Positions 206 through 54,575 of a DNA stretch of 55,548 bases are shown piece after piece. The stretch is from the UHGV virus genome UHGV-0016284; one strand, 5' to 3'. Below the pieces are notes generated by a model. It was not told the origin of the DNA. It did no database searches and worked only from the letters and a program-made list of their open reading frames with translations. The first letter of the stretch is position 1. Each line of letters begins with the position of its first letter. The position numbers were made by a program, and so were the translations under genes. Origin of the DNA: a virus.

Positions 206-3200
206 ATGAGTAGCGGCGGCGGCAAAGCCAAAACACCAACATTATTGAACGATAACCTGTATCATAAACAGTTTTATCGTGTCTTAGATATTCTCAGTGA
301 GGGGCCGATATATGGTCCGGTAAACCAGAAAGCACCACTGAATAACGTGATGCTTAATGACACGCCTGTTACTGACGCAAACGGGAATACATCAATACCG
401 GGGATTAGTATAGCCTGGCGAAACGGCACGGCTGACCAATCGCCGATTAATGGTTTTAATGCCATTGAGTCAACCGTTATTGTCAACGCAAAGGTAACTC
501 ACGACACGCCAATAATCAGGACTGTTTCAGATCCAAACGTTACCCGCGTCAGGTTGAATCTTGGTGTTGACGCTCTCGTTCAGTCAGACGACAAGGGCAA
601 TCAATACAATACATCCGTTATGTTGATGGTTGACGTTAAACCGTCATTATCTTCTACGTGGTCGCTGATTAAAGATATACACATTGGCCCCGGTAAACAA
701 AGCGGTGAATATCTGGAAGCTCACATTATCAAAGCGCCGGATGAAAAACCGTTTGATATTCGCATTCGTCGCATAACAGCAGACAGCAACAGCGATCTAT
801 TGCAGAATGATACGCGGTGGAGTAGTTACAGCGAAATCATAGACGATAATCTGTCTTATCCTCATACCGCTGTAGCTGGCGCTGTGATTGACCATGACCA
901 GTACACTGATACACCTACCCGCACCTATCATCTTCGCGGCCTGATTGTTGACGTGCCTGATAACTACAACACAGAAACGCGCACATATTCGGGCTTATGG
1001 CTTGGTGGATTCAAAAAAGCGTACACCAATAACCCTGCGTGGATTTTCCGGTATCTGGTTAAAAACGAGCGCTTCGGGCTTGCTCGACATGCTGGTTACA
1101 TTGATGTTGATGATGGCGCTTTGTACGTGCTCTCCCAATACTGCGATCAGTTGGTTGATGATGGCTATGGTGGCCTTGAACCTCGCATGACGCTTAACGC
1201 TTACATTACGGAGCAAATGAGCGCCCGCGACCTACTGGATAACATTGCAGGTATGTTCCGTGGTATCGCGTTATGGGACGGGCAACGCCTTACCGTGATG
1301 ATTGATGCGCCACAGGATCCAATTGCCACCATCACAAACGCAAGCGTCGTTGATGGCGCGTTTACTCGCTCAAGTCTTCCGCTTGCAGAGTGTTACAACG
1401 CCGTGATCGTATCATGGACTGACCCGGAAAACGGCTGGGAGCAATCAAAGGAATACGTGGCAGATGATGAACTAATCGCCCGCGATGGTTATAACGAAAC
1501 CACGTTGGAGGCGTTCGGGTGCACGTCACGCGGGCAAGCTCACCGCGCTGGGAAGTGGCTGATAGAAACAGCAAAACGCGAGCCGTCTAAATTCACGTTT
1601 AAAATGGCCCGTGACGCAATTCACTTCACCCCTGGTGATATTATCGAGATACTCGACAATAACCGTGCTGGCGCCCGTCTAGGCGGTCGTATCGTAGCAA
1701 ACAATGGCAGGGTTATCACTGTCGATAAGGTTGATTCTGAATATATCACCCCTGGCGACACCATTAGCCTGCTTGATAGTGACGGCAAATTTAAAAAACA
1801 CCAGATCACCGGAGTTAGCGGAAACAAAATTACCCTTGCATCCGCCCCGGCATGGATTCGTAACGGTACTGTATTTGCTGTATCAACTAACGCAGCAAAA
1901 CCCGTATTGTGTCGAATCACCAGCGTAGCAGAAACAGAAAATAACAGCGTGTACACCATAGAGGCTGCACAGCATGATCCGCACAAACAGGCTGTAGTAG
2001 ATAATGGCGCAATCTTTGAGGTCAACAACGATACGCTTAATCACTTCCGCGTGCCGAACATTGAAAACCTGAAGGTGTTAAACATTGGATCTGAAACAGT
2101 TCAATGCCGCGCAACATGGGAAACACTGACGACAACTCATCGCCTGACCTTTGAAATCCGCGTATACAATTCAGCGGGGGCCGTAGTTAAAAGCTACGAA
2201 ACTACTAATTACAGTTATGATTTTTATGGCATTGATGCGGGAACCTACTCATTAGGCATCCGTGGCAGAAATGACACGGGCATGAAGGGTGCTGAAAGCA
2301 TTGTGGATCTGGTTATTGGCGCACCGGCGGCCCCGGTAGGAGTTAACTGGGTTCCTGGTGTATTTCAGGCTACAGTTTACCCGATCAGCAGAACAACGCT
2401 TACCACTGACACTAGTTATGAGTTTTATTACTCAGGTGAAACACAAATCACCGATCCGGCATCAGTAACCACTAAGGCACAATATACCGGGCGTGGTCAT
2501 CAGTGGACGTTTGGCGGCATGAACACGGGCCACACCTATTACGTTTACGTGCGCACACGCAATGCTTTTGGCGTGTCTGACTTTGTAGAGGCGTCAGGTA
2601 AGCCGACAGAGAATTTTGATGAAATCAGTGACTACGTGATGAAGGATGTCATGGGGTCGGAACAGTTCAAGGAAATGATTGGTGACATCAAAGATCTAGG
2701 CGACCGCACCGATGTTATCGAAGGTGTTGCGGAAGAACTGAAAACAGCTACTGACAACCTCAAAACTACAACTGATAACCTTACGAACGTAACTGACGAT
2801 TTAAGGACTGAAACAGACAACCTTACCAGCATAACCGACGATTTGAGGACCGAAACAGACAACCTTACTAACATAACTGAAGATTTAAGGACTGACACTG
2901 ACAACCTGATCACAGAAACGGGAACAATAAAAGCTGACACCGATACACTTAAAAAAGAAACGGAAGATCTTTACAAAAAAGTTAAGGAAAACGCCGATGA
3001 TATTGGTCAGCATGAGTCCAGGATTGACCTATTAGAAGTGTCCAGCGAAAAAGTTGGCAGCGAACTGGCGCAAGCAAAAGCAAGCCTGCAAAACGCGTCA
3101 TTGGCGCTTATCAACAACTCGCTTGCACAGACAAACACGCGCGTTACCCTTACCGCCCAGTACAAAAAAGGCAGAACGGAAACGAAAGCGGAAATTGACC

Positions 3201-5950
3201 GTATTGACAACGTTATCGCTGAAGAGAAAAAAGCAACGGCTGAATCACTGAAAACCATCACGGCAGAAATGAACACGATGGATTCCAACCTTAAAGGTCA
3301 GATCTCCAGTGTGGAACGCGCAGTGGCTGACGAGGCTAGTGCCCGCGCTGAAGCTATTAACGGTGTGAACGCCTCAATAAGCAATCTCGACAAGAAAACG
3401 GATGCCAGCGTCAATAGGCTTGATCAGGCTATTGCAGATGAAACGAACGCCCGCACACAGGCGGTCAGTGACGTTAACGCAAGTATCTCGGTACTTGATA
3501 AGAAAACTGACGCCAGCGTTAAACGCCTGGATCAGGCAATCGCTGACGAAACCAGCGCAAGAACCGAAGCTATCAGTGGCGTGAACGCATCAATTTCAAC
3601 GCTTGATAGCAAAGTGGAAAGCAATATAACGCGCATAGATAAAGCTATTGCAGATGAAACGCAGGCGCGTACAGACGCAATAAGCGGCGTCAAAGCGAGC
3701 ATTAACACACTTGAAGGCAACACCAATTCAGAAGTTAAACGTCTGGATCAGGCAATCGCTGACGAGGCCAGTGCCCGCACACAGGCGGTCAGTGATGTAA
3801 AAGCATCAGTAAGCAACCTTGAAAGCAAAACTGACGCCAGCGTTAAACGCCTGGATAAAGCTATTGCAGACGAAACAAGCGCACGCAGCGAAGCTATTAG
3901 TGGGGTAAATGCCTCAGTATCAGCGCTCGACAAGAAAACCGATTCAAGCATAAGCCGCCTTGATAAAGCCATTGCGGATGAAACAAGCGCGAGAACCGAA
4001 GCCATCAACGGTGTGAATGCGTCAATTTCCACACTCGACGGCAAGGTTACAAGTAACGTTAGCCGCCTTGATAAAGCGATTGCAGACGAAACTAAGGCAC
4101 GCACTGACGCCATCAGCAGCGTTAATGCAAGTATCAGTACGCTTGAAAGCAACACTGAATCAGAAGTAAGTAGACTCGACCAGGCAATCGCTGACGAGGC
4201 CAGTGCCCGCGCACAGGCCGTTAGCGGCGTGAAGGCATCAATAGACAGCCTTGATAAGAAAACAGATGCCAGCGTTTCCCGCCTTGACAAAGCAATATCA
4301 GACGAAACGAAGGCAAGAAGCGACGCAATAACAGAGGTTAAAGCAGACTTAACAACGCTTGAGAACAGCACAAACGCCAGCGTTAAGCGTCTTGATCAGG
4401 CAATTGCCGATGAATCAAGCGCCCGCGCTCAGGCAATATCAGGCCTCAGCGCAAATCTTGGCACTGTTGAAAATAATGTTGGCAAAAACAGCGACGAAAT
4501 AAATCAGGCAAAAGCAAGCCTGCAAAACGCATCTATTGCACTTATCAATAACTCAATCGCTCAAACCAACACGCGTGTTACTCTTTCAGCCCAATACAAG
4601 AAAGGAATCAGAGAAACCAACGCGAAAATTGACCGTATTGACAACGTTATCGCTGAAGAGAAAAAAGCAACGGCTGAAGCCATTAGCGGTGTAAACGCAT
4701 CGATCACTAATCTTGATAAGAAGACTGAAGCAAGCGTAAACCGTCTTGATCAGGCAATTGCTGACGAAACAAGCGCCAGAGGACAAGCTATCAGCGAAGT
4801 TAGCGCAAGTGTCAGCACGCTTGATAATAAAGTGACAAGCAACGTCACCAGGATGGACAAAGCCATCGCCGACGAAAAAAAAGCACGCGCGGACGCAATA
4901 AGCGGCCTTAGCGCATCGCTTACCAGTACGATCAACTCAAAAGTATCTGAAGTGTCGACGGCGCTCTCTACGCATGAGGAATCAAGCGCGGAAAAATTTA
5001 GCCAGATCTCAGCGTCTTTCGAATCAGTAAACTCAAGTATTACAGAATGGTCGCAGACAATGGCTACGGCAGACGAGGCGTTGTCAACGAAAATTGATCA
5101 GCTAACAGTGACCGTTAACGGGAACAAGACGGCAATAGAGACGACATCTAAAGCGTTAACCGACTTTAGGGGTAATGTTGATGCGACATATTCAATCAAG
5201 CTCGCCACAGATAGCAATGGCGTAAAATACGCTACAGGTATGTCGCTTGGCCTTACTGGTGACGGCACTAACTTTCAGTCGCAGTGTATTTTCCTTGTTG
5301 ATCGCTTTATGTTAATGACGGCGGCAAACGGCGCATATACATCGCCCTTCTATGTCACTAACGGCGCAATGTATGTGAAAGAGGCATTTATTAAGGATGC
5401 ATCAATAGGGACAGCTAAAATTGCAGATGCCTCCATTACTATGGCTAAAATTGTCAATGAAATTAAATCAGCAAACTTCGTCCCCGGTTCCAATGGTTGG
5501 AGGATAACACAAAGCGGCGCATCAGAATTTAACAACGTTGTTGTAAGGGGTGAAATACATGCAGACAGCGGCAAGTTTACCGGTTCACTTGAGGCGAAAA
5601 CCTTTATCGGTGATGTTGCAAACATGTACACAGGTTCTGACGTTAGCACGTTAAGGGATGGTGAACTAGAAAAAGTAATAACATACAATGACACATCTGA
5701 CGCAGCGCATAGCCGACATATCTGCGTTATGGCTAACGTTAAGGGTTTTGGTGGTTGCACAATAACAATTGGCGGTTCATCAAAAGGTTTAGCACTGGAT
5801 GGCACGGAGCGCCTTGTTATGCATTCAGCAGCAGTAACCAGCAGGGGCGTTACAGTTAAAATTAAGGTATCTGCTCAAAATGACAAGGGGGCTTATATAA
5901 ATTCGCCGACAGTCATAGTGTCGCGCGGTTCTGGTTCATTCTCAGGATAA
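206..5950 (+). CDS. J: host-specificity / central tail fibre protein, lambda J-like, with inserted coiled-coil repeat stalk
   Basis: N-terminal ~800 aa align by eye with lambda J (TPTLLNDNLYHKQFYRVLDILSEGPIYGPV; FDIRIRRITADSNSDLLQNDTRWSSYSEIID; YCDQLVDDGYGGLEPRMTLNAY; FGCTSRGQAHRAGKWLIET). C-terminal ~350 aa also J-like. Between them lies a ~650-aa Ala/Asp/Glu-rich repeat region absent from lambda J. Confidence 0.9.
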   Translation: MSSGGGKAKTPTLLNDNLYHKQFYRVLDILSEGPIYGPVNQKAPLNNVMLNDTPVTDANGNTSIPGISIAWRNGTADQSPINGFNAIESTVIVNAKVTHDTPIIRTVSDPNVTRVRLNLGVDALVQSDDKGNQYNTSVMLMVDVKPSLSSTWSLIKDIHIGPGKQSGEYLEAHIIKAPDEKPFDIRIRRITADSNSDLLQNDTRWSSYSEIIDDNLSYPHTAVAGAVIDHDQYTDTPTRTYHLRGLIVDVPDNYNTETRTYSGLWLGGFKKAYTNNPAWIFRYLVKNERFGLARHAGYIDVDDGALYVLSQYCDQLVDDGYGGLEPRMTLNAYITEQMSARDLLDNIAGMFRGIALWDGQRLTVMIDAPQDPIATITNASVVDGAFTRSSLPLAECYNAVIVSWTDPENGWEQSKEYVADDELIARDGYNETTLEAFGCTSRGQAHRAGKWLIETAKREPSKFTFKMARDAIHFTPGDIIEILDNNRAGARLGGRIVANNGRVITVDKVDSEYITPGDTISLLDSDGKFKKHQITGVSGNKITLASAPAWIRNGTVFAVSTNAAKPVLCRITSVAETENNSVYTIEAAQHDPHKQAVVDNGAIFEVNNDTLNHFRVPNIENLKVLNIGSETVQCRATWETLTTTHRLTFEIRVYNSAGAVVKSYETTNYSYDFYGIDAGTYSLGIRGRNDTGMKGAESIVDLVIGAPAAPVGVNWVPGVFQATVYPISRTTLTTDTSYEFYYSGETQITDPASVTTKAQYTGRGHQWTFGGMNTGHTYYVYVRTRNAFGVSDFVEASGKPTENFDEISDYVMKDVMGSEQFKEMIGDIKDLGDRTDVIEGVAEELKTATDNLKTTTDNLTNVTDDLRTETDNLTSITDDLRTETDNLTNITEDLRTDTDNLITETGTIKADTDTLKKETEDLYKKVKENADDIGQHESRIDLLEVSSEKVGSELAQAKASLQNASLALINNSLAQTNTRVTLTAQYKKGRTETKAEIDRIDNVIAEEKKATAESLKTITAEMNTMDSNLKGQISSVERAVADEASARAEAINGVNASISNLDKKTDASVNRLDQAIADETNARTQAVSDVNASISVLDKKTDASVKRLDQAIADETSARTEAISGVNASISTLDSKVESNITRIDKAIADETQARTDAISGVKASINTLEGNTNSEVKRLDQAIADEASARTQAVSDVKASVSNLESKTDASVKRLDKAIADETSARSEAISGVNASVSALDKKTDSSISRLDKAIADETSARTEAINGVNASISTLDGKVTSNVSRLDKAIADETKARTDAISSVNASISTLESNTESEVSRLDQAIADEASARAQAVSGVKASIDSLDKKTDASVSRLDKAISDETKARSDAITEVKADLTTLENSTNASVKRLDQAIADESSARAQAISGLSANLGTVENNVGKNSDEINQAKASLQNASIALINNSIAQTNTRVTLSAQYKKGIRETNAKIDRIDNVIAEEKKATAEAISGVNASITNLDKKTEASVNRLDQAIADETSARGQAISEVSASVSTLDNKVTSNVTRMDKAIADEKKARADAISGLSASLTSTINSKVSEVSTALSTHEESSAEKFSQISASFESVNSSITEWSQTMATADEALSTKIDQLTVTVNGNKTAIETTSKALTDFRGNVDATYSIKLATDSNGVKYATGMSLGLTGDGTNFQSQCIFLVDRFMLMTAANGAYTSPFYVTNGAMYVKEAFIKDASIGTAKIADASITMAKIVNEIKSANFVPGSNGWRITQSGASEFNNVVVRGEIHADSGKFTGSLEAKTFIGDVANMYTGSDVSTLRDGELEKVITYNDTSDAAHSRHICVMANVKGFGGCTITIGGSSKGLALDGTERLVMHSAAVTSRGVTVKIKVSAQNDKGAYINSPTVIVSRGSGSFSG
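2745..2960 (+). repeat. short in-frame tandem repeats (about 30-40 bp units) encoding TDNLxxTTDDLRTETDNLT motifs inside J
   Basis: Repeated peptide TDDLRTETDNLT(S/N)IT and matching DNA units (actgacgatttaaggactgaaacagacaacctta...). The antisense ORF 2632..2940 is a by-product of this periodicity. Confidence 0.6.
3194..3244 (+). repeat. 51-bp perfect direct repeat, copy 1 (within J)
   Basis: attgaccgtattgacaacgttatcgctgaagagaaaaaagcaacggctgaa is identical at 3194-3244 and 4628-4678. An additional 23-bp identity (gcaaaagcaagcctgcaaaacgc) lies about 125 bp upstream of each copy. Confidence 0.85.
3310..4450 (+). repeat. about ten tandem 108-bp (36-aa) coding repeats, predicted coiled-coil stalk of J
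   Basis: Protein repeat KKTDASV(K/N)RLDQAIADETSARTEAISGVNASIS(T/N)LD recurs about 10 times with a 36-residue period. Boundaries approximate. Confidence 0.8.
4628..4678 (+). repeat. 51-bp perfect direct repeat, copy 2 (within J)
   Basis: Identical to 3194-3244. Spacing 1434 bp = 478 codons, so recombination between copies would be in frame. Confidence 0.85.
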
Positions 5951-5952: not shown

Positions 5953-5984
5953 AAAAACCCCGCTTCGCGCGGGGTTTTCTTTTA
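5953..5984. terminator. bidirectional rho-independent terminator between J and the antisense lipoprotein gene
   Basis: Hairpin ccccgc-ttcgc-gcgggg followed by ttttctttt on the plus strand and preceded by an A-run (T-run on the minus strand). Confidence 0.7.
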
Positions 5985-6230
5985 GTAGTTAGCTACACAG
6001 TTAGAAGGGCTACCGATGCGGCGCATGTTGTGATCGAGTTCATGACACCATTGACCAGTATAAGGCAGTTTTTCAGTGTCATAGACAAGATGACCTTCAC
6101 CATCATAGACAACATCTTGTGGAATTACTCCGCTATTCGGCAGGTTATGCAATGCGGCCTCTTTGTCAACAGCGCAACCAGTAAGAGCTACAGCCGCAGC
6201 GAACAAAACCACTTTGAACATGTTTTTCAT
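5982..6230 (-). CDS. small lipoprotein (signal peptide plus lipobox LTGC), antisense moron next to J
   Basis: MKNMFKVVLFAAAVALTGC...: hydrophobic signal peptide with L-T-G-C lipobox; 82 aa with two further Cys; AGGA ribosome-binding site 8 nt upstream. Confidence 0.65.
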   Translation of the reverse strand: MKNMFKVVLFAAAVALTGCAVDKEAALHNLPNSGVIPQDVVYDGEGHLVYDTEKLPYTGQWCHELDHNMRRIGSPSNCVANY

Positions 6231-6406: not shown

Positions 6407-9400
6407 ATGATTTACACAACTGGAACAATTGCCATCAATGGCAATACTGTTACAGGCACGGGCACAAACTTCTCCGCGCCGCTTTCTCTCATTCGTGTAG
6501 GCTGCACGCTCATTGCTGTTGGCAATCCGGTACAGATCTTTACCATCACAGAAATTAAAAGCGGCACTGAACTGTCAGTGACGCCAGCGGCTAACCCTGC
6601 AATCCCTGCCGGGACAAAATTCAGCATCCTGCTATCTGACTCGATCTCAGTTGATGGGCTTGCTCAGGACGTAGCTGAAACCCTGCGTTACTACCAGGGC
6701 AAGGAAACAGAGATCGCCGCCGCTGTCGAGTGGTGGGAAGATTTTGGCGGTGATGGTCAGGTGGATCAGCTTCTTGCCAACATTCGCGCAGAAACAGCGA
6801 AATCAACCGCTAACGCTCAAAAAACAGAATCTGACAAAAACGCAGCAGAAGCATCAAAAACAGCGGCTGCAAAATCTGCCACGGCAGCAAAAACATCAGA
6901 AACTAACGCAAAGAAAAGCGAGACAGCAGCAAAGACAAGCGAAACCAACGCCAAAACATCAGAGAACAGGGCGCAAGAATATCTGAATCAAATGGGAAGG
7001 CTTACCAGCCCAATGGTTCAATGCGATTGGCCCGTTACAACTGTTGCGACTGACGCTTACGTTAAGATAGCTAAAATTACCAACCCGGGTGGCACCCCCT
7101 GCCACATAACACTAATGATCACTAATGCCGGTAACTACGGGAAAAGTTACGGAAACATTGATTTTGTCGAGATCTCCGCTCGCAATTTTCCCAATGAACT
7201 GAACGCCGACAATGTATCTAGATACTTAAGTATCCGCCGCTTAGGTTCACCGAATCTGGCAACTGATAATCAGATGAGTTATGGGCTTGTTAAGGGCGAT
7301 AACTTTTTTGAGGTCTGGTGTTGTCAGCGAGCATTTACCACAAGCGCAAAGGTCGCTGTACTGGCACAGACTAATGAAAACGTGGAATTATACATTCCTG
7401 AAGGATTCGTTAGACAAGACAACGCACCATCAGGATTTATTGAAAGCCCAGCAGCAAGGATTTACGACCAGGTAAACAAGCCGACTAAAGCAGATTTAGG
7501 TCTTTCTAATGCTATGCTTACAGGCGCTTTCGGTCTTGGCGGTAGCGGTATACCATCAGACGGCAAGATGAGCGATGTAGAACTATTAAAAGCTCTTCGT
7601 GACAAAGGTGGTCATTTCTGGCGTGCTGATAAGCCAGCCGGAAGCACTGCGACCCATTATACCCACGGCGCTGGTATATTCTCTCGGTGTGGCGATACGT
7701 GGGCGGCGTTCAACGTCGAATACGGAACAGGTAGAGTCAAGGTTTACGCTGGTAACGATAATGGACTTAACCAGGGGAATTACTCCCTCAATGAACTATA
7801 CGGAACCCGAAATAAGCCGTCGAAATCGGATGTTGGACTCAGCAACGTAACTAACGATGCGCAGGTGAAAAAATCCGGCGATATTATGTTTGGCGACCTG
7901 GCGATCAAAAAAAGTATACCGTCAGTCTTTCTGCGGTCAGACGATGGAGCCGCCCATGTATGGTTCCAAAACGGGGATCAGTCCGAACGCGGCGTTATTT
8001 ATGCGCCTACAAATACTGATACGCTTGGCGAAGTTCACATCAGGGCTAAAACCGCAAAAGGTGAGACAAAAGGTGATTTTATTGTTCGCCACGACGGTAT
8101 GATTTCAGCCAAAGAGGCAAAAATAGCTTACAAAATCAGCGGAGCCACCGCAGAGCTTGCAAACGCATCAACTAACGTCGCTGATACTACGTTAAAAATC
8201 AGCGGCCCACAGCATACGCCTTTAGTTTTAACTCGCAGTGGAGCAATTAAAAACTTATCTATTGGGTTTAAGGTTGATGATGTTAACCAAAAATACTTGG
8301 GCGTAGCTGGTGACGGTGATTTGTATTTTGGTGATTCTTCTGACCACTCAAAAAACAGCAAAGTAATTACACAAGCAAAACTCGATAGCGGGGTAACGGT
8401 AGGCGGCAAAACAACCTTTTCCGACCTTGCCACATTTAACGCAGGTATGGCGGGATCTATCGAGCCGGAAGCCATTGACGGCCGGACTATTGATTTAAAC
8501 GACTTGATTATTGCTAATACAGAAGCTGGATCCGTTAAATACTATCAATGCAAAACTGTCGCAGGTGGTGCAAATATTACCAATAAGCCTGACGGCGTAA
8601 ACGGTAACTTTTTACTCCGTGTAGAGTCGACTCGTAAGACTACGGGTTCAGATTATGCAAACTTGCAAACGCTGATTGGCAGCGACACAAAACGCATATA
8701 CGTTCGCTTTGTTGTCAATGGAAGTTGGACAGTGTGGAGTCAGGTTGTTGTTTCAGGATGGAATCAGGATGTAACCGTCAGGTCGTTAGCCACACAAAAT
8801 GTTATTCTTGGTAATGTTACTCTTCGAGGGATAAACAAGGATGAAGGGGCGGGGATAGGTGTTGTTTTTGATGGTTCTAACTCTACCGAAAACACCTTCG
8901 GAATAGTTAATACTGGTGGTGGTTCGGCTGTTTTTCACAATTATGCTAAACCGGCTGATTCATCCGCTGTTAATACTGGCGTTCTGATAGGTGGTTATGG
9001 ATCAAGGCCGTGGACAGGCAGCACCTATACAGAGCACAGTAATGTATCTCAACACTTTCTCATGGATGGTGTAGCTTCTGCAACTAACCACGGTGGTTGG
9101 TTCCGTTTGTTAACCACACCATTAAATGCAACCATAGACAAACGTAGACAGACATTTGCTACGAGCAATAATGGCGACCTTTATATAGGTTACGATGTAC
9201 CTATGGGGCTGTACAAGCTAGATACTGCAAATTACAACGGTTTAGACATATTAAACGGTCGCGGCCTTAAGCAAGTAAATAACTCGGTTAATGAAATAGC
9301 CTTAATCACTCCACGAAATGGATCGGCAACCTCTTTAAATTTCAGAGGTGTTGCTTTTGATGGCACAATGACCGGGACTAAGGGTGCAACTCAGAAGGGC

Positions 9401-10066
9401 GATAACTTGTGGTTATCTTTTGCAGGCCACGATGGTGTAAAATTCACTGGGGCAGCAGCTGGTATCAGAATTCAGGCTTCAACTGGTTGGGGCACGACAT
9501 CAACTCAATGCGGGATAACATTTGCAACAACTGCTCAAGGGAGCACAACAAGAGTTGATAGATGGTCTATAACAAGTGATGGCACTCTATCACCTGCACA
9601 AGATAATACTTACGCAATTGGTAGCGCTGTTTCCCGTGCTACGTCAATCTTTGCTACTAATGGTGCAATACAGACGTCAGATGCAAGAATGAAAACAGAT
9701 GTCCGAAAAATGTCGGACGCGGAACTTTCAGCCGCTAAAGATATAGCCAGGGAGTTTGGCTTCTTCCAGTGGATTGAAAGAGTTAAAACGGAGGGTGAGT
9801 CAGCCAGGTGGCATACAGGTATAACGGCCCAGCGTGTTATTAGCATTATGGAATCACACGGATTAAACCCGATGGCGTATGGATTTGTTTGCTATGATTC
9901 CTGGGAAGAACAGGAGGTTGTATCTGTGGACCCAGATAATCAATCCAGGACTATCACAAAAATAGAAGCGGGGGATAGATATAGCTTAAGATATGAAGAA
10001 CTTAGCATTTTTATAGCCAGAGGGTTAGAACAGAGGATTTCGGAGCTGGAGGAAAAACTTTTGTAA
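6407..10066 (+). CDS. side tail fibre: Stf-like N-terminus, C-terminal S74-type intramolecular chaperone (autoproteolytic) domain
   Basis: N-terminal AAKTSETNAKKSETAAKTSETNAKTSE repeats as in lambda Stf-type fibres; Gly-rich beta region; C-terminus ...TSDARMKTDVRKMSDAELSAAKDIAREFGFFQW... resembles the Ser/Lys self-cleaving chaperone of endosialidase-type fibres. Confidence 0.8.
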   Translation: MIYTTGTIAINGNTVTGTGTNFSAPLSLIRVGCTLIAVGNPVQIFTITEIKSGTELSVTPAANPAIPAGTKFSILLSDSISVDGLAQDVAETLRYYQGKETEIAAAVEWWEDFGGDGQVDQLLANIRAETAKSTANAQKTESDKNAAEASKTAAAKSATAAKTSETNAKKSETAAKTSETNAKTSENRAQEYLNQMGRLTSPMVQCDWPVTTVATDAYVKIAKITNPGGTPCHITLMITNAGNYGKSYGNIDFVEISARNFPNELNADNVSRYLSIRRLGSPNLATDNQMSYGLVKGDNFFEVWCCQRAFTTSAKVAVLAQTNENVELYIPEGFVRQDNAPSGFIESPAARIYDQVNKPTKADLGLSNAMLTGAFGLGGSGIPSDGKMSDVELLKALRDKGGHFWRADKPAGSTATHYTHGAGIFSRCGDTWAAFNVEYGTGRVKVYAGNDNGLNQGNYSLNELYGTRNKPSKSDVGLSNVTNDAQVKKSGDIMFGDLAIKKSIPSVFLRSDDGAAHVWFQNGDQSERGVIYAPTNTDTLGEVHIRAKTAKGETKGDFIVRHDGMISAKEAKIAYKISGATAELANASTNVADTTLKISGPQHTPLVLTRSGAIKNLSIGFKVDDVNQKYLGVAGDGDLYFGDSSDHSKNSKVITQAKLDSGVTVGGKTTFSDLATFNAGMAGSIEPEAIDGRTIDLNDLIIANTEAGSVKYYQCKTVAGGANITNKPDGVNGNFLLRVESTRKTTGSDYANLQTLIGSDTKRIYVRFVVNGSWTVWSQVVVSGWNQDVTVRSLATQNVILGNVTLRGINKDEGAGIGVVFDGSNSTENTFGIVNTGGGSAVFHNYAKPADSSAVNTGVLIGGYGSRPWTGSTYTEHSNVSQHFLMDGVASATNHGGWFRLLTTPLNATIDKRRQTFATSNNGDLYIGYDVPMGLYKLDTANYNGLDILNGRGLKQVNNSVNEIALITPRNGSATSLNFRGVAFDGTMTGTKGATQKGDNLWLSFAGHDGVKFTGAAAGIRIQASTGWGTTSTQCGITFATTAQGSTTRVDRWSITSDGTLSPAQDNTYAIGSAVSRATSIFATNGAIQTSDARMKTDVRKMSDAELSAAKDIAREFGFFQWIERVKTEGESARWHTGITAQRVISIMESHGLNPMAYGFVCYDSWEEQEVVSVDPDNQSRTITKIEAGDRYSLRYEELSIFIARGLEQRISELEEKLL

Positions 10067-12475: not shown

Positions 12476-12637
12476 TTACGCCACCGTTACATTGTCAATT
12501 TTGATAAAATATTCAGGGTGATTTTCTATTTCGTGCTTAAAGTGCGCGTGACACAATCGCCAATCACGCGCCTGGTTGTGAAAGTAATAAACGTATTCGC
12601 CATCAATCTTATACAAAATGCCTGTAGGTTTAGCCAT
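12476..12637 (-). CDS. small hypothetical protein (53 aa, Cys/His-containing)
   Basis: ATG at 12637; MAKPTGILYKIDGEYVYYFHNQARDWRLCHAHFKHEIENHPEYFIKIDNVTVA; tightly packed between neighbours; below the ORF-track size cut-off. Confidence 0.3.
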   Translation of the reverse strand: MAKPTGILYKIDGEYVYYFHNQARDWRLCHAHFKHEIENHPEYFIKIDNVTVA

Positions 12638-13082
12638 GTAATAACGAACCATTATTGCCCCAGCGTTTTATAAATTCCTCGTTTAACTTCGTATCGCCAG
12701 ACCACTGAACACCATGTTCCGCACCGAACGAGTAGATCAGTTCGATTAATTCGCTAAACTCTGCTTTACTCATCCGGCTGGTTGACGTACCCAGCACAAC
12801 AAATCCTGATTTATCCAGGTTAGGGACAACGCCATATTTCTTAAGCCCGGCAGTAAATACCGCCTTCCAGTCTTCAGGTGACAACTTCTTGCCGTACCAA
12901 TTAACCTGATCGCTAACATCTGTCAGCAACGCCCAAAGCAACGCGTTTTGACTCAGTGAGCGTGTTTTTCCATGGATGGTAATTATCAGCGGGCTTTTGC
13001 TATCAGGCTGAATACCCCTTATCTGCCTGATAGCATTTTCTTTCACGGCGTCGTTTACTATTTCAAATCTAATTTGCCGCAT
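12630..13082 (-). CDS. ninB: NinB-type recombination protein
   Basis: Aligns by eye with lambda NinB: ...KSPLIITIHGKTRSLSQNALLWALLTDVSDQVNWYGKKLSPEDWKAVFTAGLKK..VVPNLDKSGFVVLGTSTSRMSKAEFSELIELIYSFGAEHGVQWS. Confidence 0.85.
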   Translation of the reverse strand: MRQIRFEIVNDAVKENAIRQIRGIQPDSKSPLIITIHGKTRSLSQNALLWALLTDVSDQVNWYGKKLSPEDWKAVFTAGLKKYGVVPNLDKSGFVVLGTSTSRMSKAEFSELIELIYSFGAEHGVQWSGDTKLNEEFIKRWGNNGSLLHG

Positions 13083-14142: not shown

Positions 14143-15558
14143 TTAAAAAGATGTGTTATTCTGATTGTTTCGTTGGTTAAAACGGCTTGTGCGATGATTC
14201 ATTGACTGAATACACGCGGCGGCTGCGCGAGCCTGGTCGCATGGCAAGATATTACCGTTGTCATCAAACCGCTGGTAAACAGTTCCAGACTTACCATGAC
14301 GGTTTTTGGACACAATGATTTCCATATATTCGCGGGCAACAGACTGTTCGTCGTAATACCCATCGCGGTAAACCATGATGATCCTGTCGGCATCTTGCTC
14401 AAGGTTGCCAGAATCACGAAGATCAGAATTGTTAGGGCGCTTGTTCGGTCGTTCCTCAACGCGGCGTGACAGTTGCGCCAGCGCCAACACTGGTACACGC
14501 AATTCTTTCGCCATCATCTTTAACGACCACGACAATTGCCCAACGGCGAGATCGTGACGTTCGGCCTTAGCCAGCTGCATTAAGCCGATATAGTCAATCA
14601 TTACCATACCCAAATTTGGGTGATCCTGTTTCATGCGTTCCGTTGTTGCGCGTATTTCCTCAACCGTTAACTGCGACGCGTCAACGATCCACACATCAAG
14701 GTTAGCAAGTGCGCTCATACCCTGGCCGACATGCGCCCACCCTTCATCATCAAGTTTTACCGGATTGCGCAGGCAGTCAGTTGATAAATTACCAGCGCCA
14801 GCGATAGCTCGCTCAGTCATCTGATCGAGTGACATTTCAAGAGTGAAGAACAAAACGCCAACCCGCTGATCTTTACTGCCAGGGTAAGGGCGTTCAGCGG
14901 CAGCGCGGGCAATTGTCAGCGCCAACGCAGATTTACCAGACCCAGGGCGTCCGGCGAGAAGTACCAAATCAGTAGCGTTAATGCCGCCTAACATTTCATC
15001 GAGCGGGTCAATACCTGTTTTGATGTTGTCAGAATTAACACCGCATTCCATGCGCTTGCTTAAAACATCCGTATATTCCTGTACCGCATCGCGCAACAAC
15101 ACCGGAATGATCTTGTCTTTCGTTACCTTTAATTTTGAATATCGGGAATCAAAATCCTTCATCGTCTCTTTGACGACCTCAAGCGTACCTGTTTCCAGCT
15201 TGTAACGCATATCGTCGATGAGTTCCAACATCTGCCGCCGCTGGTGCTCTTCACGTAGTAGCTGTGCGTATCCCTTCAGGTTGGCAGCAGACGGGCACGA
15301 TCGCGCCGTTTGCATTAGCGGTACAAAGTTTTCATTGCCAATCTCATCGCCAACCAATAACGCGTCGATAAGATTTCTGTTTCTGGCTTGCGCCCGGATA
15401 ACTTCAAACGCACGTTTATACAGCGGAATCGTGAACACTTCAGGATCAAGCGTGGCGAGAACATCTTGCGCGTTAGGAGTAAGGCCACCCAACAACAGCC
15501 CGCCGATAACTGACGCCTCACGTTCCTGCCGTAGTGAGTTTATTTGCTCAGTTACCAT
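14143..15558 (-). CDS. replicative DNA helicase, DnaB family
   Basis: Walker A GRPGSGKSALALTIA, DnaB-like N-terminal domain, RecA-fold C-terminal half (VMIDYIGLMQ; LAQLSRRVEERPNKRP). Confidence 0.85.
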   Translation of the reverse strand: MVTEQINSLRQEREASVIGGLLLGGLTPNAQDVLATLDPEVFTIPLYKRAFEVIRAQARNRNLIDALLVGDEIGNENFVPLMQTARSCPSAANLKGYAQLLREEHQRRQMLELIDDMRYKLETGTLEVVKETMKDFDSRYSKLKVTKDKIIPVLLRDAVQEYTDVLSKRMECGVNSDNIKTGIDPLDEMLGGINATDLVLLAGRPGSGKSALALTIARAAAERPYPGSKDQRVGVLFFTLEMSLDQMTERAIAGAGNLSTDCLRNPVKLDDEGWAHVGQGMSALANLDVWIVDASQLTVEEIRATTERMKQDHPNLGMVMIDYIGLMQLAKAERHDLAVGQLSWSLKMMAKELRVPVLALAQLSRRVEERPNKRPNNSDLRDSGNLEQDADRIIMVYRDGYYDEQSVAREYMEIIVSKNRHGKSGTVYQRFDDNGNILPCDQARAAAACIQSMNHRTSRFNQRNNQNNTSF

Positions 15559-15576: not shown

Positions 15577-16695
15577 TTACAAAATGGAATATTCAGGGTA
15601 ATAAACAAAGCGCCCTATCTCACCATGATCCGGGCTGTAAATAATCACCGCTGCCAGCCGACGCGACCGCCAGCCGCCATTAGTTGAATATGCGTCTTTG
15701 CCCGCTAACGTTCCGTGGTGTTCGACGATCCCCAATGATGTTTCAACGACAGATTGGTGGTGTAGGTGTCCAGTGTGAGCGTAAACAGCAACCGACTTGC
15801 CGAAATCCTCCCGCCAGTCAGATACGCAAGCCGACAATAAATTTTCTGGCTTTTTGATAGTGTGCCCGTGGTGGTAAGCAAGGAATGTTTTACCGTACTG
15901 CGTGTGGTGGACGATAGCAGGGGACACATCAACAGTTACGCGCGGTTCGTCTTCGTAAAAAGCTGCCAGCGCCGCACGTAGCCAAATCATGCCTGACTGA
16001 TCGTGATTGCCTGATAACACCTGGATTTCAACATCCTTATGATTTAACAACATTTTACCTACCGCCCGCCGGACCGACCGGATCGCCACATAAACAAGTT
16101 TTGCGTAGCGCGAATCACAATCTAGGACGTGATTGCTTGATGGTGTGACTGGTAATAGCCCGTCAGTGTGAAGTAGATCGCCACCGAGAAGCAATACAGC
16201 TTTTTCAGACATCGGCGCAGCGCCTACAGCGTAGTCGAAGAAGTCATTCAACACGCGCTCAGCGATCCCGGTGTCGTAGCTCTCTCCACATTCTGCTCTG
16301 TGAGCAAGCGCCCCGATATGCAGATCAAATACCGGATAAAGGGCCAGGCTTTTTTGGAAATCAATTTCAGGCACTGGCACAGCCTCCGCGCGTGGTATCT
16401 CATCCGTGAAAGCGTCGCGGGCCGCTTCCATTAGCTGTTCCATTTCGTCGCGGTCACGGGCTGTTTTAATCCAGCGCATGATCACATTGCCGTTCTTATC
16501 GACCAGTAACGACTCGCCATTGACGCCAAAACCAGGGGCGCGGCGCGTTGATAATAAACCGCGTTTCGCCAGCTTTGCGCCCAGCCGCTCGACGTTGCGT
16601 TTTGACATACCATATTTTTCAGCGATCTGCTTGTACGTTAAACCGTTGTTATATTCAGCGATCAATTGCTCATCGCTTATCTTTCTTTGTGACAT
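15577..16695 (-). CDS. fusion protein: N-terminal helix-turn-helix plus C-terminal calcineurin-like metallophosphoesterase
   Basis: N-terminus LTYKQIAEKYGMSKRNVERL (HTH). C-terminal half carries the ordered metallophosphoesterase motifs DLHIG, GGDLLHTDG, GNHD, HHGH, GHLHH. Confidence 0.6.
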   Translation of the reverse strand: MSQRKISDEQLIAEYNNGLTYKQIAEKYGMSKRNVERLGAKLAKRGLLSTRRAPGFGVNGESLLVDKNGNVIMRWIKTARDRDEMEQLMEAARDAFTDEIPRAEAVPVPEIDFQKSLALYPVFDLHIGALAHRAECGESYDTGIAERVLNDFFDYAVGAAPMSEKAVLLLGGDLLHTDGLLPVTPSSNHVLDCDSRYAKLVYVAIRSVRRAVGKMLLNHKDVEIQVLSGNHDQSGMIWLRAALAAFYEDEPRVTVDVSPAIVHHTQYGKTFLAYHHGHTIKKPENLLSACVSDWREDFGKSVAVYAHTGHLHHQSVVETSLGIVEHHGTLAGKDAYSTNGGWRSRRLAAVIIYSPDHGEIGRFVYYPEYSIL

Positions 16696-16729: not shown

Positions 16730-17398
16730 TTAGTTACAAGTTAAAAGCTCAGTGATCCATACTTGTCCTTTAGCAGTGAATACAGCCTGCTCATATCCAT
16801 CGTGAGTTACCCTCATTTCACCGTAGCCCTCATCAATAAACCACTGACTAAATACACGGCGGCGACAGCGAAGATCGTAAACACCAACAGCCGAAAGTTT
16901 TCTGTTTAATTTTACGGCTGACATTCCCAGCGGTTTAGCAACCTCTGAAGCCGTTCGGTGCATATCGTTTTTGACTATCGCGTCACATACAGCCGCTTTT
17001 GGCGCAAGTTCCTTATTAACCAGTGCAAGCCGTTCTTTTTCCTCAGCAAGATCGGCAGCAAGGCGCAACGCTTCGCTTAATGTTTGAGGAATTGCAGGGG
17101 CGTTTTGCTGTACCCGTTTTTCAAGTTCCTGCCAGCGGTCGATGATGCGAGCACGTAACTCAACGCTATAGCCAGATACAACCAGCAAAGAGTCACGCTT
17201 AGTTAAAAGCCATTCCCTCTGTGTTTGATTGTTGTATCCTTTGTAAGTTACTGATTTGCTTGATTCCCCCAAATTTGGGGCAATGACGTCAATGTCTCTC
17301 AATATGTGATCGTGCCGTTTACCAGTTAGCTTGGCGATCTCACGAGAAGACATTGTTAATACTTCGTTCGCCCCATTAAGCGCCATTAATTCAGACAT
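16730..17398 (-). CDS. Rha-family phage regulatory protein / antirepressor-like
   Basis: N-terminus ...TMSSREIAKLTGKRHDHILRDI is the Rha-family signature; C-terminal coiled-coil/KilA-C-like region. Confidence 0.6.
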   Translation of the reverse strand: MSELMALNGANEVLTMSSREIAKLTGKRHDHILRDIDVIAPNLGESSKSVTYKGYNNQTQREWLLTKRDSLLVVSGYSVELRARIIDRWQELEKRVQQNAPAIPQTLSEALRLAADLAEEKERLALVNKELAPKAAVCDAIVKNDMHRTASEVAKPLGMSAVKLNRKLSAVGVYDLRCRRRVFSQWFIDEGYGEMRVTHDGYEQAVFTAKGQVWITELLTCN

Positions 17399-17479: not shown

Positions 17480-19297
17480 TCAATGGTGAAATAAACCTTT
17501 AACCTTGCTAAAGAATCCGTCTTCTGGCTTTTTATCGAGCCGGTACAGTAATTCTTTTACTTTGTCTTGCAATGCCATTATCAGCTTACGATAACGTTCA
17601 TGATTGCGCTGTTGACGCTGTTTCAGGTCGCCCATGTACCGTTTTTGTGCTGCCCGGCGTTGCATGTTGCGAGCAATCAGTTTGTTATATCTGTCTGATA
17701 GTTGGTTATAGCCAGATTGTAAGATGTTCACATTATTTTGCAGTTCCAGTTTATCATCCTCAAGTTCTGCCACTTTAAGCTGATAGCCCTTGATAACTAG
17801 AGCCTTGTTGCCTGCCTCCTGTTGTTGCACTTTGATTATTTCCTTCGCTTCTGTCAGATCTGCACGAAGGTCGTTGATTGTTTGTTTGTCTGCCGCAGCT
17901 TTCGCTTTTGCGTCTTCGTCATTTGCAGCGTTGAGTTTTTGGCGTAGTTCGCAATTAGTTTTTACCAGGTTGTCGCGCTCACTTTCCAGCTTCTGGCGTT
18001 TACCCTGTTCGTCACCAAATGCCTTATTCGCCTCGCTGTATTGGTGTTTCCAGTAGTCAACGCGTTGCTGATAGTTGTCGCGATCTTCTCTCGCTATGTT
18101 GAGCACTCCATGTAATTCCTTGATTTGTCCTTCCAGCGTTTTTACCTGGCATTTAAGATCTCCCACCTGTTTGCTATCTGTTTGCTGCGCAATAGCCGCG
18201 CTGATATGGTTGTCTTTAAATTTGCGAAAGGCCACCGATAAATCAACCCGATCCTTTTCCGCCCCTATACGTGCAACTATCATCCCTGCTATCTCAAACG
18301 GCGCATAGCCTTTTTTGATCTGCATGTCACAGTGTTCAGTGCAATAGATGTAACCAGGAAGTTTATTCAGGCTTTCGATGCGGTGGCGCAATTCGTCATC
18401 GTCAACACCATAAGCCGAAGCAATGTCCATCAGATTGATTTCATCTGTGTCATTAACGCGAACATCGTAACCGTGGAATTTAAACGCTCTAGGTAACTTC
18501 TGTTCCGGCGGTTCAGTGTTAATTTCTATTTGCTTCATTTCTTCACCTTCATAATAACGCTGTTTAATGTGTTCCGCTTCCTCTGGTGAGATATAATCAG
18601 GGAAGTTATTTATTTGTTTGCCGAAATACTTGATCTCACCCTGGATGCGCGCCTTTATTGCGTCGTTGATGTTGTTGAAACAACCAAGATTGTGAGTCAT
18701 TCCATCAGCTGAAATATACGCCCTCCATTTATTAGTCACTTTGTCCAAATAAATACCTTTGATTCCGCTATCTCCAAAAGGCTGACGTTTTACGTTAATC
18801 TCACTGAGTGTGATTAATTTCAGGTTTTCAATTTTCACGCATGAGTCATCAGCGTTTTCTATTACATAACCATCAGGAATAGGGCCGTTAAACATTTCCC
18901 ACACAATGCGATGCAAGTAATATTGGGCGTGATTTATTTTCAACCTAAATTTTTTAGCTACTTTTGCTCTGTCTTCACTCCCGCGAATAATATCGCCAGG
19001 TTTGATACGATTTTTCCCCACTCCCCGCGCCACCTTACTGACCAGATAACCATCAGGATGATAATCAAATAATTCAGGCCAGTTTTCCGCACACTGGCTG
19101 CAATCAGCGTACTGAATATCGCCAGCTTCCACCGCTGTTATTTCCTTCCAATAGCCACCGGCCACCATGCGTACAAACTCGCTTTCTTTACCCCAATGAT
19201 TCCACGTTTGATATTTACGCTTCCGCATAAACACCATTCCTTCATCAATTTTTGCAAACAATTTACTTCCTCTTATCGATATAAAATATCTAGACAT
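17480..19297 (-). CDS. multidomain HNH endonuclease (HNH + AP2-like + Bro-N/KilA-N-like) with long C-terminal coiled coil
   Basis: YLHRIVWEMFNGPIPDGYVIEN.DD..VKIENLKLIT (HNH_3-like); IKGIYLDKVTNKWRAYISADGMTHNLGCFNNINDAIKAR (AP2-like); FKFHGYDVRV..EINLMDIASAYGV (Bro-N-like); about 230 aa heptad-rich tail. Start set to ATG at 19297 (GAGG ribosome-binding site); track start 19345 is TTG. Confidence 0.6.
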   Translation of the reverse strand: MSRYFISIRGSKLFAKIDEGMVFMRKRKYQTWNHWGKESEFVRMVAGGYWKEITAVEAGDIQYADCSQCAENWPELFDYHPDGYLVSKVARGVGKNRIKPGDIIRGSEDRAKVAKKFRLKINHAQYYLHRIVWEMFNGPIPDGYVIENADDSCVKIENLKLITLSEINVKRQPFGDSGIKGIYLDKVTNKWRAYISADGMTHNLGCFNNINDAIKARIQGEIKYFGKQINNFPDYISPEEAEHIKQRYYEGEEMKQIEINTEPPEQKLPRAFKFHGYDVRVNDTDEINLMDIASAYGVDDDELRHRIESLNKLPGYIYCTEHCDMQIKKGYAPFEIAGMIVARIGAEKDRVDLSVAFRKFKDNHISAAIAQQTDSKQVGDLKCQVKTLEGQIKELHGVLNIAREDRDNYQQRVDYWKHQYSEANKAFGDEQGKRQKLESERDNLVKTNCELRQKLNAANDEDAKAKAAADKQTINDLRADLTEAKEIIKVQQQEAGNKALVIKGYQLKVAELEDDKLELQNNVNILQSGYNQLSDRYNKLIARNMQRRAAQKRYMGDLKQRQQRNHERYRKLIMALQDKVKELLYRLDKKPEDGFFSKVKGLFHH

Positions 19298-19464
19298 TAT
19301 TAATACCTCGCATTTAGTAATTTGCTTTTGCATGGATACAATCAATAAAACGCGCTACAACGCAAAAATCCCACCGCGTAACCCATTTGCACAGGTTGCA
19401 GTGTCTTATTGCGTCAGAGGCGCTTTCAGGTGGCTAATTTTTGATTTACAGACTGGTATGAAGG

Positions 19465-54570: not shown

Positions 54571-54575
54571 ACACG

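Follow-up and report, generated by a model that had tools for sequence, protein, structure and literature searches.

In-frame gain or loss of repeat units by recombination is known to change the length of elongated proteins while their function is kept, as in the deletions of the lambda tape measure protein gpH. The same kind of variation is found in the collagen-like repeats of the host-specificity proteins of Streptococcus thermophilus phages and in the streptococcal M and alpha-C surface proteins. Classical contingency repeats are homogenised, and their DNA copies hardly differ. Among central fibres, He et al. reported that refolding of the fibre of F-type pyocins drives tape-measure ejection (He et al. 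2026, PMC12874032). [quoted passage not shown] In the F2-pyocin fibre PA0641, residues 907-1084 have been solved as a trimeric coiled coil (preprint 10.64898/2026.02.24.707460). [quoted passage not shown] In the searched sections of that paper, no analysis of the repeat architecture, the junctions or the mechanism was found.

We analysed a 55,548-nt stretch of the virus genome UHGV-0016284 (hereafter, the window). On the plus strand, as are all shaft features given below, positions 206-5950 encode a J-like central tail fibre or tip attachment protein of 1914 aa, identified from its open reading frame, Pfam domains and match to lambda gpJ. Relatives annotate the homologous genes as host specificity protein J. 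Positions 1-205 match the end of the tail assembly protein I gene of relatives, where the annotated gene order is L-K-I-J with J directly after I; L, K and most of I are absent from the window, and a check for circular closure did not join its end to its start.

The N-terminal hub and FNIII/Ig part (aa 1-851, positions 206-2758) aligned with residues 1-858 of lambda gpJ (PDB 8iyk, E 4.6e-180). It carries the FNIII/Ig domain set in the canonical lambda-J order, all above the curated Pfam cut-offs (FNIII-A_GpJ at aa 88-214, Phage-tail_3 at 335-492, Ig_J at 609-707 and Ig_J_second at 709-811). On the distal side of the insert stand the Phage_Tail_Tip domain (PF09327, aa 1643-1790, positions 5132-5575, E 5.7e-36), with gpJ 840-938 aligned to aa 1639-1737, and a variable C-terminal part (5576-5947), which differs among family members and is presumed to be the receptor-binding domain. 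Pfam and the gpJ alignment agreed with an earlier note on this DNA, which had claimed that lambda-like N- and C-terminal regions are kept around an insert, although the alignment corrects the size of that insert from 650 aa to ~790 aa. We suggest that the product is the central tail fibre, presumably a coiled-coil trimer, of a temperate siphophage that infects E. coli and belongs to the mEpimmI (mEp021-like) group.

The ~790-aa insert is composed of 14-aa units, two 70-aa modules (M1 and M2) and a set of 36-aa units, of which eleven separate the modules and two follow M2. The 14-aa (42-bp) heptad-based repeat region (aa 849-911, positions 2750-2938) was recognised by TRF (period 42 x 3.3) and HMM matches; it has three full units and degenerate ones, with a hydrophobic period of 3.52, and relatives have 0-3 copies. 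M1 (aa 944-1013, positions 3035-3244; HMM 144.6 bits) has 77% nucleotide identity with M2 and is not 36-periodic, and its final part is a degenerate unit. The A block (aa 1026-1421, positions 3281-4468), found by repeat search and HMM, contains eleven tandem 36-aa (108-bp) units, shows a hydrophobic period of exactly 3.60 and is predicted to be helix. M2 (aa 1422-1491, positions 4469-4678) was delimited by HMM and by comparison of the modules and of alleles, and the B block (aa 1504-1575, positions 4715-4930), with two more 36-aa units, by HMM and unit comparison. The non-repetitive shaft end (aa 1576-1642, positions 4931-5131) was placed by alignment with the F2-pyocin fibre PA0641. The tandem array of 36-aa repeats had thus been seen correctly in the earlier note, but its count of about ten becomes eleven in the A block and two more in the B block.

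All 18 exact repeats of at least 14 nt in the shaft are in frame. A 174-nt repeat (3071-3244 and 4505-4678) is 84% identical, and a perfect 53-bp tract forms its 3' end. The paralogous shaft segments are all in phase. They form a hierarchy that starts with 14-aa units of two heptads and continues with two super-repeats, in each of which a 70-aa module is joined to a number of 36-aa units. The minus-strand open reading frames within the repeats (e.g., 3748-4371) are taken to be mechanical by-products of stop-free repeats and not genes.

Several lines of evidence point to a helical shaft. There is no proline in 831 aa, and the hydrophobic periodicity of the shaft is 3.60, with a power of 290 against 44 +/- 11 in shuffles (z ~22). 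The AF2 monomer model, which is silent on a trimer or a beta-prism, gave helix over about aa 835-937, 976-1174 and 1194-1577 at low confidence (mean pLDDT 57). The segment from the 3' end of M2 into Phage_Tail_Tip (aa 1487-1742) aligned with residues 914-1164 of PA0641 (E 1.6e-25), and Pfam returned on the shaft just weak coiled-coil-type matches (SF-assemblin, DUF4806) below the cut-offs. As in the F-type pyocins, a long helical segment compatible with a coiled coil lies between FNIII-2 and the distal beta-prism region. Taken together, the data suggest that the shaft is an ~820-aa alpha-helical expansion of the F-pyocin-type central-fibre coiled-coil shaft, probably trimeric. Periodicity, the model, the gpJ alignment and Pfam thus uphold the proposal of a helical repeat insert in a lambda-J-type fibre.

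The 53-bp perfect direct repeat was found by exact-repeat search at 3192-3244, where it encodes IDRIDNVIAEEKKATAE, and at 4626-4678. It is the sole exact repeat of at least 50 nt in the window; within the shaft, the second-longest reaches 30 nt. The pair of 51 bp (3194-3244 and 4628-4678) given by the earlier note is real and lies inside this longer maximal tract, and its spacing of 1434 bp, or 478 codons, was confirmed. Recombination between the copies would be in frame as had been proposed, but it would remove 478 of the ~820 shaft residues and not the whole stalk. Two independent assemblies reproduce both copies, which answers the concern that the perfect repeat was an artefact: the J gene, both 53-mers included, is 100% identical in two ENA metagenome assemblies, with agreement at all 7,950 bases of the overlap. 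One of the two is a MEGAHIT k141 contig, for which k (141) exceeds 53.

The degenerate codons of the tract are identical at 17 of 17 positions; elsewhere in the module the rate is 0.59, and codon usage would predict 0.43. The chance of such identity is 0.59^17, or ~1e-4. Among the genomes examined, the perfect pair was found in the window alone. E. coli 190, at 98.7% identity the nearest relative, shows 6 mismatches over the tract, where its exact runs reach no more than 23 nt; NRZ96606 likewise shows 6 mismatches. In 13 genomes the longest exact run between M1 and M2 ranged from 11 to 62 nt, several others having 19-25 nt. Lineages other than that of the window can have long exact tracts at the matching place, of 62 bp for mEp010 and of 43 bp for both N921 and MIN12. 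A patch of ~300 nt over M2 in the window is of the N921/MIN12 allele type and its flanks are of the 190 type; the tract is perfect in the window because of this patch. The DNA-read junctions of natural variants (P0029, P0016 and mEp515) lie at the 5' edge of the 53-bp tract or in other units, and none lies inside it. These alignments indicate that the perfect pair is an accident of one lineage rather than a dedicated switch. The idea that it is built in was not borne out, given the mismatches in E. coli 190 and the mosaic patch.

Length variation is widespread in the family. Among 136 family proteins we found 24 shaft architectures, with 0-11 A units, 0-4 B units, 1-2 modules and 0-3 14-aa units, and the length differences among relatives correspond to whole repeat units or to the module-to-module super-period. 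The shaft protein search listed no match longer than 1452 aa, though the 1914-aa protein was in the collection, and therefore the long end of the length distribution rests on 15 loci fetched by DNA search. The shortest shaft seen, in MLI107, has one module and about one unit; the shaft was never wholly lost.

One clean event separates mEp021 and mEp515. The mEp515 J gene (in an Illumina-only assembly) equals that of mEp021 minus 1002 bp in frame, with 0 other mismatches in 4182 nt, and the flanks of the two phages differ at 6 of 1263 and 6 of 1822 positions. The junction falls within 120 nt of 87% identity, next to an exact run of 35 nt. PMC11893012 reports that both phages, with J proteins of 1727 and 1393 aa, respectively, plate on K-12 and need OmpA. 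N921 and MIN12 are one 108-bp unit apart, with a junction homology of 30 bp, which supports the claim that exchange among the 108-bp units varies stalk length. Ec127 equals the window minus units A3-A5, and the window itself has a 30-nt exact pair at 3503 and 3827, 324 bp apart, in units A3 and A6. Exchange between M1 and M2 also has natural counterparts. The metagenomic J P0029 is 97.4% identical over 1408 aa to the product predicted from it, and colinear except for two 14-aa units; P0016 is of the same kind, and P0033 is colinear with the predicted product at 88.7% identity. DNA was read across the hybrid M1/M2 junctions of P0029 and P0016, for P0029 on a Logan contig spanning the junction. 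These single hybrid-module forms come from short-read assemblies only, and complete RefSeq E. coli genomes contained none as one piece.

No difference separates the three available copies of the phage (the window, L020 and L021), and two prophages at 97-99% identity, those of E. coli 190 and NRZ96606, share the architecture of the window, in which the two modules are followed by eleven and two units (M-11-M-2). Length events are therefore rare on that timescale. We found no sign of a high-frequency switch. The sequence comparisons argue that it is largely right to say that this family lengthens and shortens its shaft in frame by recombination between repeats; of the mechanism for varying fibre length proposed in the earlier note, this part stands and the built-in switch does not.

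The following mechanism is proposed. Recombination between any two segments, homologous or homeologous, or else slippage between them, would remove or add whole units. Such a change would keep the helical register, 36 residues being 10 turns, and would stay in frame because all paralogous segments are in phase. Repeated events of this kind in the family have probably produced J proteins of ~1300 to 1935 aa with otherwise conserved ends. The 53-bp pair would be a recent by-product of exchange, namely of the mosaic patch over M2, and is probably at present the best substrate in the genome for the next 1434-bp in-frame deletion. Besides the pair, the window encodes an Erf-like single-strand annealing protein (22847-23500, plus strand; phrog_155, E 9.6e-48), which is a candidate catalyst of repeat recombination, an exonuclease of the DNA repair exonuclease family (15577-16695, minus strand; phrog_704, E 2.6e-139) and a NinB/Orf recombination mediator (12630-13082, minus strand; phrog_72, E 5.1e-43). 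A substrate for single-strand annealing and genes of a matching enzyme set thus occur together, and activity of these proteins on the pair is predicted. The deletion would probably proceed by single-strand annealing through the phage Erf, exonuclease and NinB or through the host RecA. The resulting J, of 1436 aa, would be viable, and proteins of its type already occur naturally. The observed anatomy, natural variants with their junctions, and recombination genes are best explained by an in-phase repeat shaft whose length is changed by recombination, with the pair as a by-product, and we consider this explanation likely as a whole. We infer that shaft length matters for receptor reach.

This explanation is compatible with a further reading that would extend it, in which the 36-aa units, instead of merely spacing the ends passively, are extra metastable coiled-coil copies that refold to beta-prism on receptor binding, each unit giving one two-strand beta-hairpin. 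He et al. predicted a switch in 21 of 24 siphophage central fibres (PMC12874032). In the window, the motif SxSxxMxxLxS occurs in nearly every unit, at position 6 in reverse and at position 21 in forward orientation, and twice per module, so that the alternating orientation described for the pyocin is present, with statistical independence limited by the paralogy of the units. The A block has 30 motif matches compared with 7.8 +/- 2.8 in shuffles. However, the units are mutual copies, so that this count reduces to two occurrences within a single consensus whose composition favours the motif, and shuffles already give ~0.7 matches per 36 aa. In 163 distinct family units, the six "S" positions are 100% small and the four "L"/"M" positions 100% hydrophobic, while E18 (100%) and R22 (99%) make up an i/i+4 pair that resembles the salt bridges reported by He et al. 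(PMC12874032). The shaft end also aligns with both the shaft and the beta-prism of the F2 pyocin. On the other hand, lambda and T5 are without this switch and the N-terminal part of the pyocin shaft is a non-switching "spine" according to the same authors (PMC12874032); all the repeats could be spine, and the AF2 monomer model gave helix only. We regard this further reading as possible, with less than an even chance.

In its most specific form, one unit would be ten helical turns before ejection and one two-strand beta-hairpin after it, and recombination would tune reach, tail draw and stored energy. Whole-unit insertions and deletions would therefore keep both folds. This form is tentative and rather unlikely. 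If it is true, each unit would add ~5 nm of tip reach (~120 nm for the whole shaft if fully extended), unit number would set both the stored energy and the pull of the tail toward the membrane on shaft collapse, and the 70-aa modules could be hinges or docking sites for side fibres, as F2-pyocin side fibres dock on the shaft.

Alternatively, the shaft may be a neutral spacer, its length without effect on fitness and its polymorphism a mere instability of an in-phase array that tolerates whole-unit insertions and deletions. The wide length variation on conserved ends agrees with this, as do mEp021 and mEp515, which share receptor and host with shafts 334 aa apart. Strong purifying selection speaks against it: among the 163 distinct units, the residue class is constrained to at least 98% at 14 of the 36 positions. 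Moreover, units have been held as positional orthologues over long periods, and even the minimal shaft of MLI107 retains a module and about one unit. We find a neutral spacer unlikely.

A dedicated programmed length switch, i.e., a contingency locus in which selection keeps the pair and the units and each lysate has mixed fibre lengths, is very improbable. In its favour, the 53-bp tract departs significantly from the background codon identity, long exact tracts lie at the same place in mEp010, N921 and MIN12, and the phage has its own annealing recombinase. Against it, the tract is broken in the closest relative and reduced to short runs in several others, the allele patch explains it in the window, and five genomes 97-100% identical share one architecture. 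The units themselves differ from what a contingency locus has, i.e., near-identical repeats homogenised by concerted evolution. The 108-bp units have a mean nucleotide identity of 61%, and each has a positional orthologue in other phages that is 80-100% identical, compared with 64-81% for the best paralogue. The unit identity matrix and this positional orthology led us to reject concerted evolution or frequent unequal crossing-over among the units. Their synonymous sites are near-saturated (identical codons 0.42 against 0.35 expected), and active avoidance of DNA identity between units was not seen in this comparison.

That the perfect repeat or the two-module structure is a metagenome-assembler chimera or mis-join is hardly credible and was rejected, for although the window apparently comes from metagenome-type data and the M2 patch differs in allele type from its flanks as expected for a chimera of co-occurring strains, the DNA is identical in the two differently made ENA assemblies (0 mismatches over 7,950 nt) and the M-11-M-2 architecture is also found in the complete chromosomes of E. 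coli 190 and NRZ96606.

Our preferred reading, a shaft of in-phase repeats that changes length by recombination, bears on the open question of how phages with long, non-contractile tails get to the outer membrane and through it. The family is a natural series in which the ends are constant and the number of 36-aa units in the shaft ranges from about one to above thirteen. Within it, the mEp021/mEp515 pair provides a single clean deletion with a shared receptor. Existing isolates make it testable whether shaft length affects reach through O-antigen or capsule and whether the units are fold-switching elements. For phage engineering, the family shows a site in a J-type fibre that tolerates large in-frame length changes, and the 53-bp repeat may make the allele of the window unstable on propagation.

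In comparison with lambda gpJ, the fibre is alike in its N-terminal 851 aa, aligned end to end with the same Pfam order, and in having Phage_Tail_Tip and a receptor-binding end. Lambda gpJ, however, goes from residue ~858 straight to Phage_Tail_Tip, whereas ~790 aa of helical repeats are inserted here, and PMC11893012 describes the phage as not lambdoid in immunity or genome type. The mEpimmI J genes are the nearest, with 84-99% nucleotide identity, a shared neighbourhood and shared repeat types; no A block seen is longer than the 11 units shared by the window, E. coli 190 and NRZ96606, which also have three 14-aa units. In contrast to the classical contingency repeats, the units here are ~61% identical, positionally orthologous and rarely changing. 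The F-type pyocin fibres (PA0641 of F2, PDB 25vf, and the F7 pyocin) are alike in their J-like N-terminus (E 3.6e-122), and the motif SxSxxMxxLxS of their trimeric coiled-coil shaft, which stands between the FNIII domains and the distal beta-prism, is shared with the window. The fold switch is described for these pyocins and has not been demonstrated for any phage J. He et al. did not describe the pyocin shaft as a tandem array, and the word "repeat" is absent from their paper (PMC12874032). The pyocin shaft has ~163-178 residues and is described as heptad-based, whereas the shaft of the window has ~820 residues, is built on a 36-residue repeat (3.6 per turn) and is polymorphic in length.

The J gene of the window (206-5950, plus strand) is a single open reading frame of 1914 aa, which encodes a lambda-J-like central tail fibre and contains the entire finding. 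Its N-terminal part (aa 88-811) carries the lambda-J domain set in Pfam (FNIII-A_GpJ, Phage-tail_3, Ig_J and Ig_J_second), Phage_Tail_Tip is located on the C-terminal side (aa 1643-1790), and no Pfam match above the curated cut-off was found between aa 811 and 1643. Residues 1-858 of lambda gpJ (PDB 8iyk) align to aa 1-851 of J (E 4.6e-180) and residues 840-938 to aa 1639-1737, which agreed with the lambda-like N- and C-terminal regions described in the earlier note. This two-part alignment shows an insertion of about 790 aa at a single place in the lambda layout. Among phages, the mEp021-like "mEpimmI" coliphages come closest (84-89% nucleotide identity; PMC11893012), and the nearest sequences overall are prophages of E. 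coli 190 (98.7%) and NRZ96606 (97.3%).

The window lacks the tail genes L and K and most of I, which precede J in identical contigs (L020), and its end (54373-55548) does not join its start (1-205); therefore, it is not a closed circular genome. The integrase gene directly follows the side-fibre gene, indicating the phage (non-integrated) form. Relatives have a cassette of small minus-strand ORFs upstream of L, one with a weak ANT match, to which the last large ORF of the window (54985-55335, minus strand, 116 aa) probably belongs. In mEp021 and mEp515, an HNH endonuclease gene (705-1271 in both L005 and L007) separates tail assembly gene I from J; the window and the remaining relatives do not have it, and there J comes directly after I. 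In the early region, a gene (17480-19345, minus strand) whose 621-aa product has an HNH_3 endonuclease domain adjoins genes for a Rha/ANT antirepressor-like protein (16730-17398) and a DnaB-type helicase (14143-15558). ARAGORN found no tRNA or tmRNA genes in the whole window. Between J and the side-fibre gene, an 82-aa ORF (5982-6230, minus strand) starting MKNMFKVVLFAAAVALTGC... has a lipoprotein signal with a lipobox Cys, and its location is that assigned to the lipoproteins of superinfection exclusion, by which the outer-membrane receptor of the phage is blocked (PMC11893012).

The repeat insert, or shaft, consists of 14-aa (42-bp) units (aa 849-911; three full, some degenerate), a 70-aa module M1 (aa 944-1013), eleven 36-aa (108-bp) units A1-A11 (aa 1026-1421), a module M2 (aa 1422-1491) with DNA 77% identical to M1, two further 36-aa units B1-B2 (aa 1504-1575) and a non-repetitive helical shaft end (aa 1576-1642), all on the plus strand. 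About ten tandem 36-aa repeats had been reported in the earlier note; the tandem array was confirmed, the count being eleven plus two beyond M2, and the 1434-bp spacing it observed is the M1-to-M2 super-period. The 36-aa units of the window show a mean identity of 61% in nucleotides and 59% in amino acids with nearly saturated synonymous sites, and they are old. Antisense ORFs of up to 207 aa over the array (3748-4371 and 3007-3288, minus strand, and others) are most likely by-products of stop-free periodic sequence, not genes. In relatives, minus-strand "terminators" predicted by ARNold are annotated within J.

The 3' ends of M1 and M2 carry a perfect direct repeat (3192-3244 and 4626-4678, plus strand), whose true length is 53 bp and not the 51 bp first listed. 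No other exact repeat in the window is as long, the runner-up in the shaft being 30 nt, and all 18 exact shaft repeats of at least 14 nt are in frame. An assembly artefact, named in the earlier note as a possible source of this identity, is very unlikely, because two ENA assemblies, including a k141 MEGAHIT contig, contain the same DNA with both 53-mers and without mismatch. Nor does the identity reflect chance: the tract has 17 of 17 degenerate codons identical, compared with a fraction of 0.59 in the remaining module, and is therefore a homogenised patch. The pair was further thought to be built in, and this did not hold. The longest exact M1/M2 run varies from 11 to 62 nt among 13 two-module genomes; E. 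coli 190 and NRZ96606 have a run of 23 nt and 6 mismatches in the tract. The M1 of the window is identical to the 190-type M1, while a stretch of about 300 nt over M2 matches the N921/MIN12 allele exactly within 190-like flanks; a recombination patch therefore created the perfect identity. Moreover, the 139 mismatches between the J alleles of the window and E. coli 190 are clustered, with 62 in the first 800 nt (window ~206-1005), 13 in nt 1600-1800 (~1805-2005), 35 in nt 4200-5000 and nearly zero in nt 2000-4200. This allele is therefore a mosaic of several recombination patches, the M2 patch being one of them.

The 478-aa in-frame deletion product predicted in the earlier note has natural counterparts among the family J proteins. 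P0029 (1408 aa) shares 97.4% identity with the deleted form of J, with which it is colinear except for two 14-aa units, and P0033 is 88.7% identical and colinear. The DNA changes from M1 type to M2 type at a common GAAAC immediately 5' of the tract in P0029, and at the final base preceding it in P0016. These hybrid forms (P0029, P0016 and P0033) are known solely from short-read assemblies, and no hybrid single-module form was found as one piece in 5,426 complete E. coli genomes. Logan contigs are built at k = 31, so a second repeat copy, if retained, should break the contig; a Logan contig of P0029 passes through the junction.

HMM segmentation of 136 family proteins gave 24 shaft architectures, with 0-11 A units, 0-4 B units, one or two modules and 0-3 strong 14-aa units, and full-length J proteins range from 1304 to 1935 aa. 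The protein database search with the shaft as query listed none above 1452 aa, yet the collection searched contains the exact 1914-aa protein; long members seem to have been lost at candidate selection, so that its length distributions miss the long end. Three length changes were resolved at the nucleotide level. The J of mEp515 is that of mEp021 minus a single 1002 bp (334 aa), with 0 further mismatches in 4182 nt, and 12 of 3085 flanking positions differ. The deletion joins the fourth unit after M1 to the fourth after M2; its junction falls in a 120-nt segment of 87% identity adjoining a 35-nt exact run. Both phages plate on K-12 and require OmpA (PMC11893012), indicating that the deletion is tolerated. 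Between N921 and MIN12, the difference is one 108-bp unit whose junction has 30 bp of homology; elsewhere, the gene shows 31 substitutions. Ec127 corresponds to the window minus A3-A5, which matches A3/A6, the most similar paralogues of the window (81%), sharing a 30-nt exact run 324 bp apart. In P0008 and P0032, the second module is cut after ...KKGLSETKAQ and fused straight to ITEWSQ of the non-repetitive shaft end, removing the B units and part of the pyocin-shaft-homologous region.

Variation of fibre length by recombination between the repeats, as the earlier note proposed, is therefore supported on evolutionary timescales by these architectures and events, but not as a switch. Each 36-aa unit is 80-100% identical to its positional orthologue versus 64-81% to any paralogue, with no concerted evolution, and five genomes of 97-100% identity have one common architecture. 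Shaft recombination thus appears to be sporadic and tolerated. Judged from the repeats, the 53-bp pair would be the best deletion substrate in the window genome. Its genes include those for an Erf-like annealing protein, NinB/Orf and an exonuclease. Systems of the lambda Red and P22 Erf type work on homologies a few tens of bp long.

The 831-aa shaft region contains zero proline, and its hydrophobic periodicity is 3.60 residues (power 290 versus 44 ± 11 in shuffles; 3.52 in the 14-aa region). An AF2 monomer model from 22 homologues, of moderate-to-low confidence, places helix at about aa 835-937, 976-1174 and 1194-1577. In the F2-pyocin central fibre PA0641, residues 914-1164 align with J aa 1487-1742 (E 1.6e-25), and the structure of residues 907-1084 has been solved as a trimeric coiled-coil shaft (preprint 10.64898/2026.02.24.707460). 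Taken together, the insert is best read as a roughly 4.6-fold expansion of this shaft, which would measure about 120 nm if fully extended. The mEpimmI J family and its "repeats of different length" were already published, and in the searched parts of that article (PMC11893012) no repeat hierarchy, recombination junctions, perfect-tract origin or fold-switch-motif link was found. The J of the window is a known kind of protein with a new, longest array and an unusual, length-polymorphic shaft.

The product of the side-fibre gene (6407-10066, plus strand; 1219 aa) has a Peptidase_S74 intramolecular chaperone domain at its C-terminus (E 2.3e-10) as well as a weak PA14 match, and the gene contains a degenerate tandem repeat of 21 nt (6887-6968). 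The side fibres of the F2 pyocin dock on its central coiled-coil shaft; by analogy, this side fibre may bind the repeat shaft of J.

He et al. (PMC12874032) reported that, upon cell contact, the central fibre of the F7 pyocin converts a coiled coil of 163 residues into a beta-prism, which powers tape-measure ejection, and that the fold-switch motif is SxSxxMxxLxS, with strands alternating in direction. Nearly every 36-aa unit has this motif in reverse at position 6 and in the forward direction at position 21, and M1 and M2 carry it too. Among 163 distinct family units, which are paralogues and so limit the statistics, residue class is 100% conserved at the ten motif positions and E18/R22 is an essentially invariant i/i+4 pair. 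It is conceivable, although rather doubtful, that the units are fold-switching elements, each forming ten helical turns or one beta-hairpin; if true, this duality would explain the tolerance of whole-unit indels. Compared with lambda gpJ, both end regions are common, whereas lambda gpJ lacks the ~790-aa insert. The motif is likewise common to J and the F7 pyocin, in which the beta-prism conversion was observed; for J it would be a prediction.
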